Positions 1-12,885 are shown, counted from the first letter of the stretch. The stretch: 32,000 nt of DNA from Candidatus Saccharimonadota bacterium (GCA_023898645.1 CP060232.1:630001-662000), one strand, 5' to 3'. The notes: generated by a model not told the origin, from the letters alone. Made by a program: numbers and translations.

Positions 1-1
1 C

Positions 2-1732
2 ACACGACCGCTATTTCAAGTAAACCTGCGCGTACTTGTCAAAAGCCCCGATGCAAAACAACATATCATTGCACTCCGATCAGCACTTGACGGCTATAGT
101 GTTCTGCCATATCAGTCTATCAAGGCGAGGCTATCCCTACCGATTATTGATAAACTACGCCAGCGTAACGCGACAAATCGACTGCCATCACTCTTCCGCA
201 AGTCAGCAATGATCCTGGCTTCAACGGAGCTTGCAAGTCTTTACCACTTCCCATCGAGCCAAGTAAGTAAAACTGATAACCTCATTACGTCACTTAGTCG
301 TACGCTACCAGCACCCGTATCACTCAAATCTGGCAAAAAGTTATCAATTCTAATCGGTGATAACTACCATCATGAGACAATCACACCTATCGGTCTTACC
401 GAGGAAGAACGAGAACGGCACATGTATATCATTGGTGGTACGGGCAACGGTAAAACAACAATGCTGTTTTATGAGATATTGCAGGATATACGTGCAGGCA
501 ATGGCGTAGCAGTATTAGATCCCCACGGTGATCTTGCCGAGCGTATCTTGCGGTACATACCAGAGGAGCGTATCAATGACGTTATTTACCTCAACCCTGA
601 TGACCTAGCATATCCAATCGGTATGAATTTGCTTGAACTATCGCCCGATCTTGAAGGAGATGATCTTCTGCGAGAAAAAGACCTTATTACTGAGGCTACT
701 ATTTCAGTATTGCGTAAGATATTTTCCGAGGACGACAGTGGTGGCCATCGTATCGAGTACGTACTTCGTAACACCATACAAACGGCTCTAACGCTTGAAG
801 ATCCGACTCTATTTACCATCTTTGAGTTGCTCAATGATGCTAAATATCGTCGCAAGGTAGTAAAAACACTCGAAGATAAAAACCTGAAAGACTTTTGGAA
901 CAACGAGCTTGGCAAAGCTGGTGATATGCAGAAAGTTAAAATGGCCGCAGGTATTACCGCTAAAATTGGACGCTTCCTGTTCTCCGCATCTGCTCGCCGT
1001 ATGATTGAGCAACCAAAATCTACAATCAACTTTGAGGATATCCTAGCAGGTCGCAAGATACTGGTATGCAACTTCTCTAAGGGTCTTCTTGGAGAAGATA
1101 CCTCGGCACTATTTGGTACGACTGTTCTTGCGAAGCTACAAACTGCGTCCTTACGCCGCGCACGCATCGGACAAGGCGAACGCACTCCATACTATCTGTA
1201 TGTTGACGAGTTTCAGAACTTCGCTACAACGAGCTTCGTACAGATGCTATCGGAGGCGCGAAAGTATAAATTATTCCTCACTATGGCCGAACAATCTACC
1301 TCACAGCAAGATGAGCAACGCCTCGTAGATATAATTCTTGCTAACGTCGGTACAGTGGTATGTTTCCGCTCAGGTAGTCCGTCGGACGAGCGACTTGTCT
1401 TGCCGCTATTCATGCCGTTCATTCAGCAAGGCGAGATAGCCAACTTACCAGCTTATTCATACTATGTGCGCATCTCAGCCGTGAATGCTCAAGAACCGAT
1501 GTCAGGTGTAACAGTGGTCGTTAAAGAAACTGGAGATGAATCTATAGCTCGAAAAGTGATCGAGACATCACGTCAACTTTACGCAAAGAAAGTTGAACTA
1601 GAAGAAAAAGAACCTAATGAACCAAAACAAAAAGATACGGCTAAAATATCTCAAAAATCTACAAAACCGAAGAAGAAGCGAGCGAGCAAAAAGCCAGATG
1701 ACGAGCTATCCACGATGAAGTCGGTGACTTAG
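2..1732 (+). CDS. P-loop ATPase, TraD/VirD4-type (type IV secretion coupling-protein-like); 5' partial, runs off the window
   Basis: I translated frame 2 from nt 2 to the ATG at 209 and found no stop, so the ORF-track Met is internal. Walker A is GGTGNGKTT and a Walker B-like motif is YYLYVDEFQNF. ELASLYHFP is, from memory, a motif typical of this family. The C-terminal tail is Lys/Glu-rich. Confidence 0.7.
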   Translation, partial: TRPLFQVNLRVLVKSPDAKQHIIALRSALDGYSVLPYQSIKARLSLPIIDKLRQRNATNRLPSLFRKSAMILASTELASLYHFPSSQVSKTDNLITSLSRTLPAPVSLKSGKKLSILIGDNYHHETITPIGLTEEERERHMYIIGGTGNGKTTMLFYEILQDIRAGNGVAVLDPHGDLAERILRYIPEERINDVIYLNPDDLAYPIGMNLLELSPDLEGDDLLREKDLITEATISVLRKIFSEDDSGGHRIEYVLRNTIQTALTLEDPTLFTIFELLNDAKYRRKVVKTLEDKNLKDFWNNELGKAGDMQKVKMAAGITAKIGRFLFSASARRMIEQPKSTINFEDILAGRKILVCNFSKGLLGEDTSALFGTTVLAKLQTASLRRARIGQGERTPYYLYVDEFQNFATTSFVQMLSEARKYKLFLTMAEQSTSQQDEQRLVDIILANVGTVVCFRSGSPSDERLVLPLFMPFIQQGEIANLPAYSYYVRISAVNAQEPMSGVTVVVKETGDESIARKVIETSRQLYAKKVELEEKEPNEPKQKDTAKISQKSTKPKKKRASKKPDDELSTMKSVT

Positions 1733-1756
1733 ATATTACCAAATCAGATCAAGCTA

Positions 1757-1785
1757 TTGCTTATTTTATTATTTCGTGCTATAAT
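1757..1785 (+). promoter_or_regulatory. Sigma70-like promoter of the DGR target gene (TTGCTT-17 nt-TGcTATAAT)
   Basis: The -35 ttgctt is at 1757-1762 and the -10 tataat is at 1780-1785, with an exact 17-nt spacer and an upstream TG (extended -10). It would give a ~140-nt leader containing an 11-bp stem (1821-1831 / 1857-1867, one G.U pair). Confidence 0.55.
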
Positions 1786-1933
1786 AGTCATCGAACCTTA
1801 ACAGTTTAGCACTCCCTACTGAGAGCGGCGTTTTATATACAAATCTTGCATGTAATACGCCGTTCTCAATCGACAGTTGAGATCACCGCTGCAAGTCGCA
1901 TCGGAGAAGTCTACGGCAAGGAAGAGGGTCATC

Positions 1934-2647
1934 ATGACCACCATCGAGCAGTTGGCCGGTATCACCGCTCAGCACAACGAGATCGTCAAGCGTGTCGGCA
2001 ACGGCTCGCTCGACCCCGCCGCCGTCAAGCGGGCACTCCAGGACATCATCGAGGGCAAGCTGCCCACGCTGACCTGGAACCCGCCCACCTGGTGGCGTAC
2101 CCCCGAGCAGCAGCTCGAGCGTGCTCGCCAGCTCTGGCCGAACGCCGTTCTGCCCGAGCCGCCCAAGGAGTTCACGCCCCGGACGAAGTCCGAGGTGCTG
2201 CTGCTCCACGTGCCGGACATGTTCGACTCCCTCTGGGACAAGGTCGTCGCCCCCACGGACTACACCAAGTACCGGTGGGAGGGTGTCAAGTCTGACAAGC
2301 GGAACCTGCGTCTCTCGCCGAACAAGCGTGAGTACACGGAGCCCGTCTGGTTGGCTTTCGACCCCGAGCGCGGTAAGGGTGAGCGTCCCGACTCCTTCTG
2401 GGGTCAGGCCGACACCGCTGCCAGCGAGGTCTTCTCGGCGCTGATCCAGTTCCCTGAGTGGTCACTCGCGTGGTTCAACGGTGCTTCGGCTCCGAACCTC
2501 TCGGGCTACCAGCTCAAGTACGACGGGAACTGGTCGAACGTTCCGTCCCTCCACCGGTGGGACGTCGACCGCCAGCTGCGGCTGTGCGACCGCTGGGCTG
2601 CCCACCGGCTTGCCCACTGGTCGTCTCCGTCGGTCAGGGAGTGCTGA
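1934..2647 (+). CDS. DGR variable (target) protein, 237 aa, no recognisable N-terminal signal peptide or TM; the C-terminal ~37 codons are the VR
   Basis: The ATG at 1934 is preceded by ggaagaggg (SD-like). The ORF-track TTG at 1877 is less likely. The gene is strongly GC3-biased: 36 of its first 40 codons end in G/C. The VR occupies the 3' end, as in known DGR targets. The C-terminus reads NWSNVPSLHRWDVDRQLRLCDRWAAHRLAHWSSPSVREC. Confidence 0.85.
   Translation: MTTIEQLAGITAQHNEIVKRVGNGSLDPAAVKRALQDIIEGKLPTLTWNPPTWWRTPEQQLERARQLWPNAVLPEPPKEFTPRTKSEVLLLHVPDMFDSLWDKVVAPTDYTKYRWEGVKSDKRNLRLSPNKREYTEPVWLAFDPERGKGERPDSFWGQADTAASEVFSALIQFPEWSLAWFNGASAPNLSGYQLKYDGNWSNVPSLHRWDVDRQLRLCDRWAAHRLAHWSSPSVREC
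2529..2640 (+). repeat. DGR variable region (VR)
   Basis: Aligns without gaps to 3023-3134 at a constant offset of 494 nt. It differs from TR at 15 positions, and all 15 are adenines in TR. The invariant GC-rich 3' block tggtcgtctccgtcggtcaggga is IMH-like. Confidence 0.9.
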
Positions 2648-2651
2648 CACT

Positions 2652-2665
2652 GGAACCTTGGTTCC
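2652..2665 (+). other. Perfect palindrome ggaacc-tt-ggttcc 5 nt after the target stop codon (candidate DGR target-site hairpin/cruciform)
   Basis: Read directly from the sequence: ggaacc at 2652-2657 and ggttcc at 2660-2665. Confidence 0.5.
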
Positions 2666-2668
2666 TTG

Positions 2669-2731
2669 GTATCCGGAGGGGTTTGGTTTCTTGGATCTTG
2701 ATCCTTGAAAACTTTTTACCTCTCCGGATAC
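2669..2731 (+). other. 10-bp inverted repeat gtatccggag / ctccggatac enclosing ~43 nt, in the target 3' UTR
   Basis: The arms are at 2669-2678 and 2722-2731 and are perfectly complementary. Confidence 0.5.
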
Positions 2732-2765
2732 CTGCACTCACTTTTGAATTTGTCCCTTAACCGTT

Positions 2766-2797
2766 CCTCTGCTTTAGCAGAGGCGTTTTTAATTTTT
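2766..2797 (+). terminator. Rho-independent terminator of the target gene
   Basis: The stem cctctgc (2766-2772) pairs with gcagagg (2777-2783) around a ttta loop, followed by cgtttttaattttt. Confidence 0.7.
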
Positions 2798-3022
2798 GCT
2801 AAAATAGGAAGTGAATTGGTTACTGAACGTATGTTCACGGATATGCGTCACTGATTCCGTGTTTTGAAACTGACAGAATTACCTTATTTACGGATCAGGT
2901 AAGCGTGCAGGCAGAATATCGAGCACTCCGTGCAATCCGCTTGAGATATGTATCTCGTATAAAATACAGGGTTTGGATGCGTCTGGACCCGGTGGCACCG
3001 GATGGTGGATCGCGCTATACCG

Positions 3023-3134
3023 ACTGGTCGAACGTTCCGTACCTCAACCGGTGGGACGACGACCGCCAGCTGAAGCTGAACGACAACTGGGCTGACAACC
3101 GGAATGACAACTGGTCGTCTCCGTCGGTCAGGGA
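3023..3134 (+). repeat. DGR template region (TR)
   Basis: This is the A-rich counterpart of the VR, with 27 adenines. It has 7 AAY codons in the VR reading frame (3031, 3046, 3079, 3085, 3097, 3103, 3109), and 6 of them are changed in VR. The ORF-track ORF 2905..3144 merely reflects the frame inherited from VR. Confidence 0.9.
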
Positions 3135-3418
3135 CTGCTCGTGATGGATTTCAGCCAGCCTCCCAGCATGCGTCCAATTTCACTACAAGTGGAATCGAGC
3201 TGCTGGTAGGCCTGGTTAGAAACGCATTTACAGTCTTTACACAAATTGAGGAGCAAGCGGAGGCTATCGAGTCGTACGGATGCTTCGTTTATGTAAGCGG
3301 CCTTATCTGACGGTTTAGTACTACTAGCAGCCCGCAGTGATAGCCGCAGGAGTTCAAGTATTTCGCTCTGACACGTCGCGCCGAGACTGTAGCGCTCTGA
3401 TTTTGGAAATGCAATCAA
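3128..3418 (-). CDS. avd: Avd-like accessory variability determinant (four-helix-bundle protein), encoded antisense to TR and RT
   Basis: Contains FPKSERYSLG...LRAA (a four-helix-bundle / 23S-IVS-protein-like motif) and a C-terminal EIGRMLGGWLKS resembling BPP-1 bAvd ...EVGRILGSWIARV (from memory). The ORF-track start is a TTG at 3418. The Avd-like helix-1 sequence (VYHLYESFHEC) continues upstream with no ATG/GTG/TTG, so the true start is unresolved. The stop codon and last codons overlap the TR 3' end (3128-3134). Confidence 0.75.
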   Translation of the reverse strand: MIAFPKSERYSLGATCQSEILELLRLSLRAASSTKPSDKAAYINEASVRLDSLRLLLNLCKDCKCVSNQAYQQLDSTCSEIGRMLGGWLKSITSSP

Positions 3419-3461
3419 ACATTCATGAAAGGATTCGTATAGGTGGTAGACGCTACTGACA

Positions 3462-4562
<1,101 letters not shown>

Positions 4563-4588
4563 AAATACGACTCAGGTATAATAAGGAC

Positions 4589-4987
4589 ATGAATGTTTAT
4601 CTGGACATTGACGGTGTATTGCTAGCCAACGAGAGTAACGCGGCTAACTATGCAGATGAGTTTCTACAGGCTGTACTAGCAACATATCCCGATTCTACCT
4701 ATTGGCTGACTACACACAATTGGAGAGGCGAAAACAGGACTAAAGAAGTGCTCGCACCACACCTCAGACCGGAAACCGTGCCACTACTGGATAAAATTAA
4801 GCCGTCCGTCTGGAATGAAATGAAGACGGACGGAATAAACTTCTCTGAGAAGTTTATATGGCTCGATGATGACTTATGGCAGGATGAGCTAAAGGTACTT
4901 GAGCGACACAATGCCACCGATAACTTTATCTTAATAGACCTTCAGAAAAACCCAAACCAACTAAAAGATATAGCCGAGATTATTTAG
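4589..4987 (+). CDS. HAD-superfamily-like small protein (DxDGV motif)
   Basis: Begins MNVYLDIDGVLL (HAD motif I, DxD) and later has FIWLDDD (an acidic motif IV-like sequence). It starts 27 nt after the RT stop on the same strand. Confidence 0.45.
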   Translation: MNVYLDIDGVLLANESNAANYADEFLQAVLATYPDSTYWLTTHNWRGENRTKEVLAPHLRPETVPLLDKIKPSVWNEMKTDGINFSEKFIWLDDDLWQDELKVLERHNATDNFILIDLQKNPNQLKDIAEII

Positions 4988-5489
4988 TCTTTTTATGATC
5001 TTTTAGGTAGTCGCGCATTACCGCAAAGACCATGAGTCTCTTACGAGCACCAGCACCACGTGGTTTTACGATAATTGCATAGAGCGCTAAAACGCCTAAA
5101 GCTATAAGCACGCCTCCAATGTAGTAGTACCAATTTGACCAAAATAGGACTGCCGGTAACAGTGTGATAGGCAAAACACGAACTAAGATTACTCGCACTA
5201 ACGTGTCGTAATATTTCCTGAATCGCTTATACGCTGAGGGGCGAGCCGACTGGTGTATGCGCAGATAATCTGCGTAGTCTTTCACGGCTATTGTTTCCGT
5301 GTACTTCAGATGCTCGTAAACCGATTCTTGCTCAGTATTATCATACAATCCGTAGAAGCTATCTTTTGACCTAAAGAATGCATAGTGAAGTACAACAAGG
5401 ATCCAATCGATAGCCTGTGAAAAATGTAGGTACGCAAGACCAAACAAAACTCCGGCACTTAACGCTAGATATTCCATACTATCTATCAT
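4980..5489 (-). CDS. Hypothetical integral membrane protein
   Basis: Has several hydrophobic helices (ALSAGVLFGLAYL, LLPAVLFWSNWYYYIGGVLIALGVLALYAIIV). Its start abuts the stop of the upstream PLD-like gene, so the two are probably an operon. Confidence 0.55.
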   Translation of the reverse strand: MIDSMEYLALSAGVLFGLAYLHFSQAIDWILVVLHYAFFRSKDSFYGLYDNTEQESVYEHLKYTETIAVKDYADYLRIHQSARPSAYKRFRKYYDTLVRVILVRVLPITLLPAVLFWSNWYYYIGGVLIALGVLALYAIIVKPRGAGARKRLMVFAVMRDYLKDHKKTK

Positions 5490-5490
5490 A

Positions 5491-5937
5491 TCATTTATAC
5501 CATTTTTCCAGTTTTATGAAGCGTAGCATCTCTTGTACTGACGAAGCATCGTCTATGCGACGCATTAACTCACAGCTATCATTTTGAGATAGTATGTTCA
5601 AACTACCTTCGTAGAGGATATCATCGATGATAGCTAGTTTCCTGTGATGGCCGATCGTCATTAGGACAGTAACTCCCATACTCTGCATCATTTCGATAGC
5701 CTTGATCACTTGATCTTGATACTGCGGATCATGCTCCTCAATAGGTTTCGTATTCACGATAACCTCAACGCCGCGCTTTTTAAGTTTTGCAAAGACGACA
5801 AGCAAGGATATAGAACGACGCTGAGTAATGAACGGACTTTCTATAACTACACGATGTCTTGCACTCCGAAGGTCTTTGTAAAACCTGTCATAAAATGTAG
5901 ACTGATTGTAGAGTGAAGATGATGATAGCCTAAACAT
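5491..5937 (-). CDS. Phospholipase D-family (HKD motif) protein, Nuc-like nuclease/phosphodiesterase
   Basis: The HKD motif is GHHRKLAIIDD (HxKxxxxD). I moved the start to the ATG at 5937-5935, which is preceded by aggagg (5943-5948) with a 5-nt spacer. The longer ORF-track N-terminus reads through a hairpin-rich region and is probably not coding. Confidence 0.7.
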   Translation of the reverse strand: MFRLSSSSLYNQSTFYDRFYKDLRSARHRVVIESPFITQRRSISLLVVFAKLKKRGVEVIVNTKPIEEHDPQYQDQVIKAIEMMQSMGVTVLMTIGHHRKLAIIDDILYEGSLNILSQNDSCELMRRIDDASSVQEMLRFIKLEKWYK

Positions 5938-5998
5938 TTTTACCTCCTGAAATAGCGTTTTCGCTAACAGAGTAAAAAGTTCTATCTTCATCCATGTA

Positions 5999-6204
5999 CC
6001 CCTGCCAAGAAGAGAAGCCAGCCTAGTGCTGGCTCTTCTTCTTGGCAATCGAGCATGAGGATCGAACCTCAGTCGCGGCTGCTTTAGCAGGCGCAAGATT
6101 GAGATACGCGTACTGTCAAATCTTTGATTTGCACAGTACCTAGCGGATGTTCCTCGCTAGCATAGCGAGGACATCCAAGCGTCGGACTCATGCCCCTGCC
6201 AAGA
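5999..6204 (-). other. Highly structured intergenic element: four near-perfect hairpins plus a tRNA T-arm-like hairpin, bounded by 12-bp direct repeats. Candidate ncRNA or insertion remnant.
   Basis: The direct repeat cccctgccaaga is at 5999-6010 and 6193-6204. A second direct repeat caagattgaga is at 6094-6104 and 6200-6210. Hairpins lie at 6005-6045 (18 paired positions, 1 mismatch, 1 G.U), 6074-6094, 6110-6139 and 6145-6176. On the minus strand, 6056-6071 reads tgagg-ttcgat-cctca. The strand assignment is tentative. Confidence 0.4.
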
Positions 6205-11982: not shown

Positions 11983-12243
11983 AATATTCCCACAGTACCA
12001 CTTGTGCCTGTAACGTCAAAATAGTTATGCTCTCGATAGGGCAAATTTACTGAAATAGCGACCATTTACATTCATACAATGCATGTAGCAAGGTGTTTCG
12101 TCGTATGGACAATTTTATAAGTATTATCATTAATCTTGCCCAACTACATGTAAGTTGTACGAGCTTTGCCTGATGTGGTAGACTGTCAGCAACGCCGGCG
12201 TAAATCACGCTGACAATCGCACCTTTGGAGGGAGGTGAGTAAG

Positions 12244-12885
12244 GTGAGCAGCATCTTTGCATGGTTCAGTGCGAACTGGCCTGTGATTTTGAGTGTACTT
12301 GGTGGCGCCGGTGGCATCGCCGGTTTCGTCAAATCATTTCATATCGTCCGTGAATACGAACTTGCAATCGTGACCAAACCTCGTGGCGGCAGCGTCATAA
12401 GAGACAAGGAAACGGGGCAAGTCAAGGAATATACGGGCGTCCTGATCCGATTAGCTGGACTATACCGCGTCATTGTCGTCAACATGAAAGACCATGTGGA
12501 CCTTATCTTACTCGACGGTGTGATGCGCCCGACGGAAAGTGGTCATCGCGAAAAATGGCAGCTATCCGCGACAATCAAATGGCACATCGAAAAGGGCTAC
12601 GTCTATCAGGCGTCCGAGTGGCATCTCACGGACATCGGCGAATACGCGAGGGGTAAGATTCAGGATGCGATTCTGAATTATCTAGAAAACACCCCAGCCG
12701 CCGTAGAGCTAAATTCTGCTGGAGTTTTTACGGCCAGCCGGACAAAGGCCGTCCAGGAAGAGTTACTCACTCACGGCGTCGTATGGACCGAGCTGATGGT
12801 CAACAAAAACGCGTTGGCTGACTCCGAGATCCAGGGTCAAGCCATCCGCGAAATCGGCAATCCGTTACGCCCAGACACCGCCTAA
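12244..12885 (+). CDS. SPFH/band-7-like membrane-anchored protein (tentative)
   Basis: Has an N-terminal TM helix (WPVILSVLGGAGGIAGFV) followed by VREYELAIV..., which resembles the start of an SPFH domain. The GTG at 12244 lies 8 nt after ggagggagg (12227-12235). The ORF-track start at 12235 sits inside the SD sequence. Confidence 0.45.
   Translation: MSSIFAWFSANWPVILSVLGGAGGIAGFVKSFHIVREYELAIVTKPRGGSVIRDKETGQVKEYTGVLIRLAGLYRVIVVNMKDHVDLILLDGVMRPTESGHREKWQLSATIKWHIEKGYVYQASEWHLTDIGEYARGKIQDAILNYLENTPAAVELNSAGVFTASRTKAVQEELLTHGVVWTELMVNKNALADSEIQGQAIREIGNPLRPDTA

Follow-up and report, generated by a model that had tools for sequence, protein, structure and literature searches.

Diversity-generating retroelements (DGRs) are, to our knowledge, the only means of targeted protein hypermutation in prokaryotes. 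They are particularly frequent in epibionts within the Candidate Phyla Radiation (CPR), where their role is presumed to be host attachment. A stretch of 32,000 nucleotides from a Candidatus Saccharimonadota bacterium (GCA_023898645.1, CP060232.1:630001-662000), here called the window, carries a DGR whose variable-protein or target gene is a sharply bounded island of high G+C content. How did the gene come by this composition? Its silent sites are held at G or C against both the mutational bias and the translational preference of the host, and no textbook cause fits. A preliminary description of the window offered the speculative reading that a gene from an actinobacterial host or its phage had been captured as a DGR target. 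The evidence presented here favors, with a probability of about 0.55, an old synonymous-site constraint limited to the coding sequence (CDS) of a native and mobile family of DGR targets, and not a captured foreign gene. Selection, or else a biased process, would act on synonymous sites and so maintain in place the state rich in G+C at third codon positions (GC3). The argument turns on four features, of which the target gene and the variable region (VR) at its 3' end are paired with a template repeat (TR) and its flank.

1934..2647, + strand: DGR variable-protein (target) gene, 237 aa, with its ATG after GGAAGAGGG, identified through the TR/VR pair; GC3 0.886
2529..2645, + strand: VR, the C-terminal 39 residues of the target, from the TR/VR alignment
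2975..3022, + strand: GC-rich 5' flank of the TR, from its composition (GC 0.67) and residual similarity
3023..3139, + strand: TR, 117 nt with 27 adenines, non-A positions 78% G+C, from the TR/VR alignment

Extent and codon usage of the island

The G+C content (GC) of the whole window is 0.469. The segment 2001-2600 reaches 0.667, and every other 600-nt window of the 32 kb stays at or below 0.53. The target CDS (1934-2647, 714 nt, GC 0.66) was compared with the 29 other long open reading frames (ORFs) of the window, which serve as its compositional background. Its GC3 of 0.886 stands against 0.466 in these ORFs (sd 0.053, maximum 0.611; z = +7.9). The third-position frequency of A (A3) is 0.008 versus 0.259 (z = -5.4), a depletion of about 30-fold, and that of T (T3) is 0.105 versus 0.276 (z = -3.2), a depletion of about 2.6-fold. 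The codon counts given in the preliminary description were reproduced exactly: a third-position G or C is found in 36 of the first 40 target codons and in 16 of the 40 codons that follow a (CT)38 tract in the DGR reverse transcriptase (RT) gene. The flanking ATPase, HAD-like and PLD genes had been said to resemble the RT, and all four genes indeed lie at GC3 0.41-0.47.

In 30-nt windows, GC climbs from 0.43 at 1844 to 0.57 at 1874, with the rise at about 1870, within the 5' leader of the gene; over 1740-1859 the promoter and leader region has a GC of 0.35. At the other end, GC declines, with values of 0.63 at 2624, 0.53 at 2654 and 0.37 at 2684. The edges first placed at about 1860 and at the stop codon are confirmed, with the block extending about 40 nt beyond the stop codon across the GGAACCTTGGTTCC hairpin. 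GC is high again where a reappearance had been described, at 2975-3022 and in the TR (0.60, or 0.78 with the 27 adenines left out). The cassette is compositionally chimeric, as had been stated, with a GC-rich target CDS and TR next to an RT, an accessory gene (avd) and neighbors of native composition. The further point that avoidance of adenines in TR and VR is unable to explain a gene-wide bias is also upheld.

The excess G+C is almost wholly at synonymous sites. All 85 two-fold degenerate codons end in C or G: the pyrimidine-ending (Y-ending) class has C at 44 of 44 sites and T at 0 of 44, and the purine-ending (R-ending) class has G at 41 of 41. The six Ile codons are all ATC, the A-ending codons are just GCA (codon 34) and TCA (codon 177), and GGT, CGT and GCT make up almost all of the 25 T-ending codons. 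Four-fold sites carry A, T, C and G at 0.02, 0.20, 0.50 and 0.29, compared with 0.26, 0.29, 0.24 and 0.21 in the background. Adenines are kept at codon positions 1 (0.19) and 2 (0.30). Amino-acid usage leans to residues with GC-rich codons, the sum of Gly, Ala, Arg and Pro (GARP) being 0.29 versus 0.17-0.26 and that of Phe, Tyr, Met, Ile, Asn and Lys (FYMINK) 0.18 versus 0.25-0.31.

This codon usage is non-native, as first claimed, and runs opposite to the preference of the window's own L11, L1 and NusG genes. Those genes prefer A at R-ending two-fold sites (G fraction 0.31-0.48) and nearly exclude G at four-fold sites (0.03-0.07, with A at 0.22-0.30), whereas the target has G at all R-ending two-fold sites and four-fold frequencies of 0.29-0.32 for G and 0.02 for A. 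There are no tRNA genes in the window. An overlapping antisense or alternative-frame gene was considered and rejected: the antisense frame in register with the codons owes its openness only to the avoidance of TTA, CTA and TCA, and the places where its stops fall are not conserved.

The target family and its leader

Related loci are designated by L-numbers, and W denotes the window's own gene or locus. A search of 5.8 billion proteins returned 371 matches, of which the best 120 are 79-94% identical to the target, and the sole named protein among the matches belongs to Candidatus Saccharibacteria. An exhaustive HMMER search of 1.84 billion representative proteins, a library without taxonomy labels, gave 264 clusters at 50% identity. 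A search built on 12 aligned family sequences, covering one genome per species for 185,579 species, found 12 loci, 11 of them in Saccharibacteria/Saccharimonadia and 1 in an unlabelled metagenome-assembled genome (MAG); the locus scans used two peptide patterns. No target homologue was found in INPHARED phages, IMG/VR or PLSDB plasmids. These matches show a large and diverse family, seen solely in Saccharibacteria among its labelled members. The preliminary description had considered that the closest homologues might all be low-GC CPR proteins; they do come from Saccharibacteria, but they are themselves GC islands. Homologues begin with MTTIEQ or MATIEQ, and all family members end in ...W(S/A)SP(S/V)VRE(C/L). 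The nearest locus, L007 (MAG UBA6572), is 95% identical to positions 1-6044 of the window.

At 40 distinct loci (16 in the first set), target GC3 lies above the local background with few exceptions, and almost all members are islands of high GC3 in hosts of 0.35-0.55. Among close relatives the gene is at GC3 0.76-0.88 and its background at 0.41-0.58. Members with values near background (L011, 0.51; L018, 0.42; L045, 0.47) occur as well, and a neighbor-joining tree scatters the GC-poor members among the GC-rich ones. The most extreme member, L046 (4813-5372), has 68 C, 51 G, 4 A and 1 T at 124 third positions; together with L047, the same gene at a contig end, it reaches GC3 0.96-0.98 over a background of 0.40, both genes being partial. 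Its first eight codons (ATG AAT GCT GCA ACC GAC AGA CAT) are ordinary, and the GC-rich part starts at codon 9. In L012, a GC-richer Saccharibacterium, the target is at 0.73 and the genome at 0.71. Tandem paralogous targets, 57% and 31% identical to the window protein, occur at L035 (2385-4606) and L036 (5001-7222); each has a leader motif and a GC3 of about 0.8, and a single TR, avd and RT follow.

The bias is also old. Loci reached through relatives of the RT (RTs 63-72% identical) carry divergent targets of the same superfamily, 35-38% identical to the window protein, and three of these (L052, L054, L055) have GC3 0.70-0.78 in hosts of 0.35-0.53. The targets of W, L052, L054 and L055 are mutually 31-43% identical in amino acids and all have GC3 0.70-0.88 in hosts of 0.35-0.53, while their third-base identity at conserved four-fold codons is that expected by chance (z = 0.5-1.4). 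GC-richness has therefore outlived complete synonymous turnover. Among closer proteins, down to 45-70% identity, third bases are still shared well above chance (z = 4-9), so the protein evolves fast relative to its silent sites; dN/dS in the family is about 0.2-0.6.

The bias is confined to the coding region, and flanking DNA is at background GC. The segment from +41 to +240 after the stop codon has GC 0.41-0.45 in GC3-rich and GC3-poor members alike (Spearman rho -0.04). Across members, GC at second codon positions (GC2) is uncorrelated with GC3, and GC at first positions (GC1) is weakly correlated with it (rho 0.52). At seven loci, the RT has GC3 0.33-0.47, in each case within 0.07 of its host (r = 0.70, p = 0.08), and it lies at least 0.3 under the target GC3 at 7 of 7. 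A CDS-limited bias beside a native RT argues against an imported block of DNA and against regional GC-biased conversion, and favors action in place on the coding region.

The 5' region points in the same direction. Two elements precede the gene.

1757..1786, + strand: promoter-like element, TTGCTT, 18 nt, TGcTATAAT (extended -10), read from the sequence
1793..1933, + strand: conserved structured 5' leader RNA, 141 nt, from an alignment of 21 loci

A consensus promoter scan made no call at 1757-1786 because the -35 element is weak. Conservation between loci starts at 1791-1793, 7 nt past TGcTATAAT, in at least 10 loci. The leader begins at the predicted start of transcription. Within it are the near-invariant block GAACCTTAACAGTTTAGCAC, a hairpin spanning 1820-1868, CGCCGTTCTCAA, GAGAAGTCTACGGC and the ribosome-binding site GGAAGAGGG. 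Several of its single-stranded blocks are near-invariant, and it keeps its adenines. The hairpin has 20 bp with 97.4% of alignment cells paired and 8 pairs with compensatory changes; 0 of 500 shuffles equal it, and slid controls are 29-54% paired. Many of its pairs are G-U, which implies a plus-strand RNA. Rfam 15 gave no match at E <= 1 on either strand over 1600-3700. Nearly all loci with a target have one copy of the leader motif for each target gene, also upstream of members 31-45% identical, and the motif precedes GC-rich and GC-poor members alike. In L056 (4642-4795) the leader stands before a target from another protein family, and from this distribution it seems to accompany the targets of this DGR lineage. 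Nearly every member has this AT-rich promoter and leader in front of it; therefore, the gene and its native 5' region form an old unit.

The surroundings of this unit vary. An order of ATPase, target, DGR, HAD and PLD is found in the window, L007 and L020, and its ATPase-target-TR-avd-RT part also in L026. L003 has ATPase, HAD, PLD and target without a DGR, L001 has the target with ATPase remnants beside a Y1 transposase, and in L004/L005 and L006 the target lies between unrelated housekeeping genes. Orphan target units span L001 8556-10869, L003 9929-10980, L004/L005 9366-10971 and L006 9859-10746; they comprise the leader, the CDS and the hairpin, and in some cases the terminator. None of them has a TR, avd or RT within 10 kb, and some are accompanied by pseudogenised pieces of the ATPase. 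Their VRs are still diversified at positions of TR adenines. A Y1 (IS200/IS605-type) transposase lies just downstream in L001 and L002.

Explanations for the synonymous bias

The preferred reading, a synonymous-site constraint acting in place, would include decay: GC-to-AT change would be eroding the bias in all sampled close copies, most of all in those without a DGR in their flanks. In the close clade, whose consensus GC3 is 0.89, derived synonymous changes number 38 from GC to AT and 5 from AT to GC, close to the ratio of about 7:1 expected under decay towards GC3 0.46. Decay is heaviest in copies without a DGR in their flanks (L009, 22:0; L024, 14:4), and DGR-linked tips have losses only, in small numbers (3:0 to 6:0; W 3:0, L007 4:0, L019 4:0). 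C-to-T changes (24) outnumber G-to-A changes (13) in the close clade. Gains by G-to-A and C-to-T stand at 3:14 in DGR-linked and 25:40 in orphan copies, a difference that is suggestive but not significant and that comes from tips that are not independent.

The leading guess for the cause, a tentative one, is that the constraint is tied to the DGR itself through a purge of adenines. Adenine is the base that this RT miscopies, and A-ending codons form the most strongly purged class; erosion or counter-selection would then act on adenines at silent sites of the target transcript, and an extra pressure against T-ending codons would be needed besides. The link of GC-richness with the DGR is suggestive. 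The DGR-adjacent copies with a measurable background all exceed it (7 of 7, by 0.25-0.41 GC3), and for copies that lack an adjacent DGR the difference from background spans -0.04 to +0.58 (one-sided Mann-Whitney p = 0.03, from samples that are not independent). In L016 and L017, A3 is the only depleted third base, and A3 falls towards the VR in four divergent DGR-linked members (L035, L038, L054 and L055).

Several observations weigh against this interpretation. A general gradient of A depletion towards the VR was rejected, as pooled A3 is near uniform (0.08, 0.08 and 0.07 in 28 members). The DGR-adjacent tips show GC-to-AT change only, so there is no direct evidence of AT-to-GC restoration in place, and polarisation of changes on internal branches has too few sites. 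We know of no mechanism by which DGR cDNA would extend beyond the TR, which here is only 117 nt long. The purge of T-ending codons (0 of 44 at two-fold sites) is unexplained by adenine mutagenesis of the sense RNA, and adenines are retained at codon positions 1 and 2 and in the leader. The target of L056, from a different family with the same leader and a related RT, has GC3 0.53 versus 0.39-0.49, although the DGR there is degenerate, with the VR fused to the TR. In L057, which has a GC-rich host, RT and avd lie under the host GC3, so that host tracking is imperfect. Finally, composition was seen over 32 kb of the genome, from which the uniqueness of the island genome-wide is extrapolated.

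The loci found through RT relatives, in a search for other target families, are L052, L054 and L055 (same superfamily), L057 (GC-rich host), L056 (VR-TR fusion), and L053 and L058, in which the target is off the contig. At L056 4796-5743, the target runs into TR-type sequence with an end resembling the initiation of mutagenic homing element of a TR (IMH*-like, CAGGGACTGCTCG) and then into sequence that normally follows the TR. From its sequence, this fusion looks like a recombinational deletion that removed the interval and avd.

A doubtful extension of the adenine purge is a gene-wide DGR footprint, in which silent adenines, and secondarily A/T-ending codons, would have been purged either because the target transcript is reverse-transcribed at low frequency or because the effects of this are selected against. 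The island of GC3 0.8-0.98 would then last while the gene is DGR-linked and decay once it is orphaned. If this were true, DGR mutagenesis would shape whole genes over evolutionary time, beyond the VR. More generally, a tie to the DGR would mean a new constraint or a side-activity of DGR reverse transcription.

The main rival is allelic replacement, which we consider unlikely and yet the alternative to be taken most seriously. It holds that the CDS is repeatedly overwritten by recombination with alleles from GC-rich Saccharibacteria or from an unsampled GC-rich mobile element, and that the import then decays in the low-GC recipient. The leader on the 5' side and the VR end with its hairpin on the 3' side would serve as recombination anchors, which would account for the match between the island and the CDS. 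The unit is indeed mobile, as the differing contexts of L001, L003, L004/5, L006 and the window attest. Synonymous divergence (pS) between W and L003 is 0.79-0.87 for ATPase, HAD and PLD and 0.24 for the target; between W and L026 it is 0.81 for the ATPase, 0.37 for RT, 0.40 for avd and 0.25 for the target. In the close clade, 49% of informative pairs of sites fail the four-gamete test, and this uniformly high incompatibility leaves a recombination test of the pairwise homoplasy index (PHI) type without significance (p = 0.24). Exchange of the target among Saccharibacteria is, on these sequence comparisons, likely. The losses of 38:5 at the tips, near the decay expectation, the match of the L012 gene to its GC-richer genome and the start of the L046 block at codon 9, inside the CDS, all suit replacement too.

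Against replacement, sampled Saccharibacteria backgrounds reach at most about 0.71 GC3 and the gene 0.88-0.98. The GC-rich backgrounds have A3 about equal to T3 (L012, 0.14/0.14; L015, 0.17/0.20), unlike the gene, in which A3 is far below T3. Several mutually saturated subfamilies would each need a GC-rich donor of their own. The low pS may reflect a restricted codon alphabet with its two-fold sites fixed, which lowers the pS that is attainable. In addition, the TR must keep matching the VR, which argues for long co-residence with an RT and avd of native composition. If allelic replacement were nevertheless at work, it would reveal a hidden route of gene exchange among Saccharibacteria.

Regional GC-biased gene conversion (gBGC), or a local mutational bias arising from frequent recombination under diversifying selection, is improbable; its analogy would be the high-GC loci for antigenic variation in some pathogens. 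The heavy signal of recombination and homoplasy would fit it, as would the shifted GARP and FYMINK values, the weak correlation of GC1 with GC3 and the near-symmetric loss of A3 and T3 in L046. However, the island is box-shaped and CDS-limited, with 36 of 40 codons ending in G or C from the first codons on and with GC 0.41-0.45 in the co-conserved 3' untranslated region (UTR) and downstream, and its four-fold sites are strongly strand-asymmetric. Noncoding positions of the exchanged unit thus appear to lack the GC excess that regional conversion would leave there. Effects of gBGC reported in bacteria amount to a few percent and not to +0.4 in GC3.

The capture originally proposed, in which the CDS, and the TR copied from it, came from a high-GC actinobacterial host or its phage and were taken up by a native DGR, is very unlikely. 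Cultivated Saccharibacteria live on Actinobacteria. The codons resemble those that a high-GC organism uses in a highly expressed gene (NNC/NNG at two-fold sites, T-ending codons about limited to GGT, CGT and GCT, A-ending ones absent), the usage is opposite to the native optimum, and the close clade is decaying to host composition as an import would. On the other side, no actinobacterial, phage or plasmid homologue was found in the 5.8 and 1.84 billion proteins, the 185,579 species, INPHARED, IMG/VR or PLSDB; given two-pattern locus scans and unlabelled representatives, a very remote donor homologue is possible. The large family is labelled solely as Saccharibacteria, and a native leader precedes GC-rich and GC-poor members. 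The edges coincide with the CDS in every lineage, noncoding flanks are at background GC, and GC-richness persists over saturated divergence, which a single recent import cannot yield. Homologues, leader, CDS-limited bias and saturation all speak against capture.

Native translational selection, with a very highly expressed gene on the organism's optimal codons, is scarcely credible. The limitation of the bias to the CDS would fit it, and L11, L1 and NusG share the preference for C over T at two-fold sites (0.65-0.80). It was rejected because these three genes favor A-ending Lys, Glu and Gln codons where the target has G, and differ from it at four-fold sites as well. Tuning of the codon usage to translation in a high-GC host, conceivable given the adjoining conjugation-type type IV secretion system (T4SS), is at best equally improbable.

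The cassette and its relation to known systems

The remaining features of the locus are as follows.

209..1732, + strand: TraG/TrwB-like type IV secretion coupling ATPase (Pfam TrwB_AAD_bind, TraG-D_C); GC3 0.41
2654..2667, + strand: GGAACC-TT-GGTTCC hairpin, 7 nt 3' of the stop codon, from the sequence
2766..2793, + strand: intrinsic-terminator-like hairpin CCTCTGC-TTTA-GCAGAGG with a T run, from a terminator scan
3128..3418, - strand: avd accessory gene, 96 aa, GC 0.50 (Pfam bAvd, E = 6.2e-15, above the curated cut-off)
3462..4562, + strand: DGR RT, 366 aa from ATG 3462 (Pfam RVT_1, E = 4.7e-20); GC3 0.42-0.44
3487..3562, + strand: (CT)38 tract encoding (LS)n at the 5' end of the RT ORF, from the sequence

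Judged by its parts, a TR/VR pair, an RT and an Avd-type protein, the DGR of the window is real and intact-looking. TR (3023-3139) and VR (2529-2645) have 15 mismatches, 15 of 15 at TR adenines, and in addition differ by C/G at 3135, near the 3' end; the last ~30 nt of the VR equal the TR sequence, an IMH-like end. Among 16 homologous VRs, 26 of 28 TR-A columns are variable, with a mean entropy of 1.27 bits versus 0.21 bits at non-A columns. Such VR diversity between genomes points to past activity of the DGR. The hairpin at 2654-2667, which takes the position of the hairpin or cruciform found after the VR in studied DGRs, has a putative role in retrohoming by analogy with BPP-1. It is the 3' end of the minimal conserved unit, with homology stopping at 2679 (L006) and 2689 (L013). 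The hairpin at 2766-2793 is the probable end of the target transcript, and homology with L001, L012 and L003 stops at 2793-2806. The TR flank at 2975-3022 has weak residual similarity to the target just 5' of the VR, its translation ...APDGGSRYTDWSNVP resembling ...APNLSGYQLKYDGNWSNVP, and appears to be a decayed duplicate of target sequence upstream of the VR; old duplication of the gene's 3' end would account for the high GC of the TR and its 5' flank.

The avd gene lies on the opposite strand, convergent with the TR, with which it overlaps by 12 nt, and divergent from the RT across a gap of ~43 bp. In this layout, RNA running downstream of the TR is antisense to avd. The opposite-strand layout recurs in L007, L014, L020, L021, L026, L035/36, L053 and L057. 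The RT has 4039 relatives at E <= 1e-20, and its translation contains LGNISSQ, which we take to be the hallmark motif of DGR RTs. Between identical flanks, the (CT)n tract has 38 units in the window, 23 in L007 (7553-7598), 23 in L021 (2308-2353), 22 in L020 (6553-6596), 16 in L026 (6402-6433) and 12 in L014 (1220-1243). ATG 3462, the one plausible start, stays in the RT frame solely when n = 2 mod 3, one shifted frame meets a TAG at once (CGA TAG), and no ATG, GTG or TTG occurs between the tract and the conserved N-terminal motif of the RT. By its sequence, the RT looks like a candidate phase-variable DGR RT, switched on and off by slipped-strand mispairing; we know of no described phase-variable DGR.

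The target protein is rich in Trp (14 of 237 residues), has no obvious signal peptide and matches no Pfam family. Its AlphaFold2 (AF2) model is confident, with a predicted local distance difference test score (pLDDT) of 95.8 and a predicted template modelling score (pTM) of 0.83. Foldseek with this model found no neighbor in PDB or BFVD at E <= 1e-3, and TvpA (2y3c), a C-type-lectin-fold protein, gave E = 2.0 and TM 0.16; Foldseek can miss remote C-type-lectin variants. A PDB sequence profile search returned nothing relevant. On the model, the target fold may lie outside the known C-type-lectin and immunoglobulin (Ig) classes of DGR variable proteins.

The ATPase is the ancestral upstream neighbor of the target gene; remnants of it accompany the target in L001 and L004, and a full T4SS cluster lies upstream in L003. 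The T4SS of Patescibacteria is homologous to monoderm conjugation machinery, one study found the T4SS cluster essential for epibiotic growth, and no adhesin has been identified for it (PMC12102498); the same paper makes no mention of DGRs. As the target is frequently beside the coupling ATPase, gene position would make its protein a candidate T4SS partner. Many close homologues of the target lie on contigs of ~1-2 kb. Assemblies seem to break around the gene, perhaps because the VR is heterogeneous, because the gene occurs in multiple contexts, or because the GC island affects coverage or binning. Elsewhere in the window, an ORF at 12235-12885 (+ strand) has the second-highest GC3 (0.61) and no Pfam match.

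A new leader RNA shared by targets of this DGR lineage, a possibly phase-variable RT and a confidently modelled target fold without a structural neighbor are by-products of the analysis, and all are directly testable in cultivable Saccharibacteria. A literature search found no report of GC-rich DGR targets, and composition-based detectors of horizontal gene transfer will wrongly call this family foreign. In common with CPR/Patescibacteria DGRs and BPP-1 (mtd-avd-TR-brt), the cassette has a TR/VR pair with adenine-specific differences, a VR that forms the target's C-terminus, a GC-rich 3' end that is identical in both repeats and has a hairpin after it, an accessory protein of the bAvd family and the RT motif (I/L)GxxxSQ. 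Particular to the present system are the avd gene on the opposite strand, convergent with the TR and divergent from the RT, the family-wide codon-level GC island of the target CDS, the structured leader RNA on the target and the length-variable (CT)n tract in the RT ORF. The target fold also differs in showing no Foldseek similarity to C-type-lectin folds of the Mtd/TvpA type.

Like phase-variable genes with simple sequence repeats (SSRs), the RT has a tract in the 5' part of its ORF whose unit number differs among near-identical relatives and would toggle the frame; unlike them, the affected gene is a DGR reverse transcriptase. Horizontally acquired islands of atypical GC and codon usage share with this locus a sharp discontinuity, non-native codons, GC-to-AT decay and mobile contexts. 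Here, however, the edges are those of one CDS and not of a DNA segment, the promoter, leader and 3' UTR are native and co-conserved, no donor homologues were found, and the anomaly is common to saturated subfamilies in many hosts rather than the mark of one recent import. In Borrelia, vlsE and the vls cassettes are high-GC antigenic-variation loci in a low-GC genome, conserved across species. Both systems are programmed-diversification loci far richer in GC than their genomes in more than one species. The vls system works by segmental gene conversion from silent cassettes and has a GC excess with strong GC skew, whereas here diversification proceeds by reverse transcription of a 117-nt TR, and the excess lies at synonymous sites over the whole CDS, with C above G.

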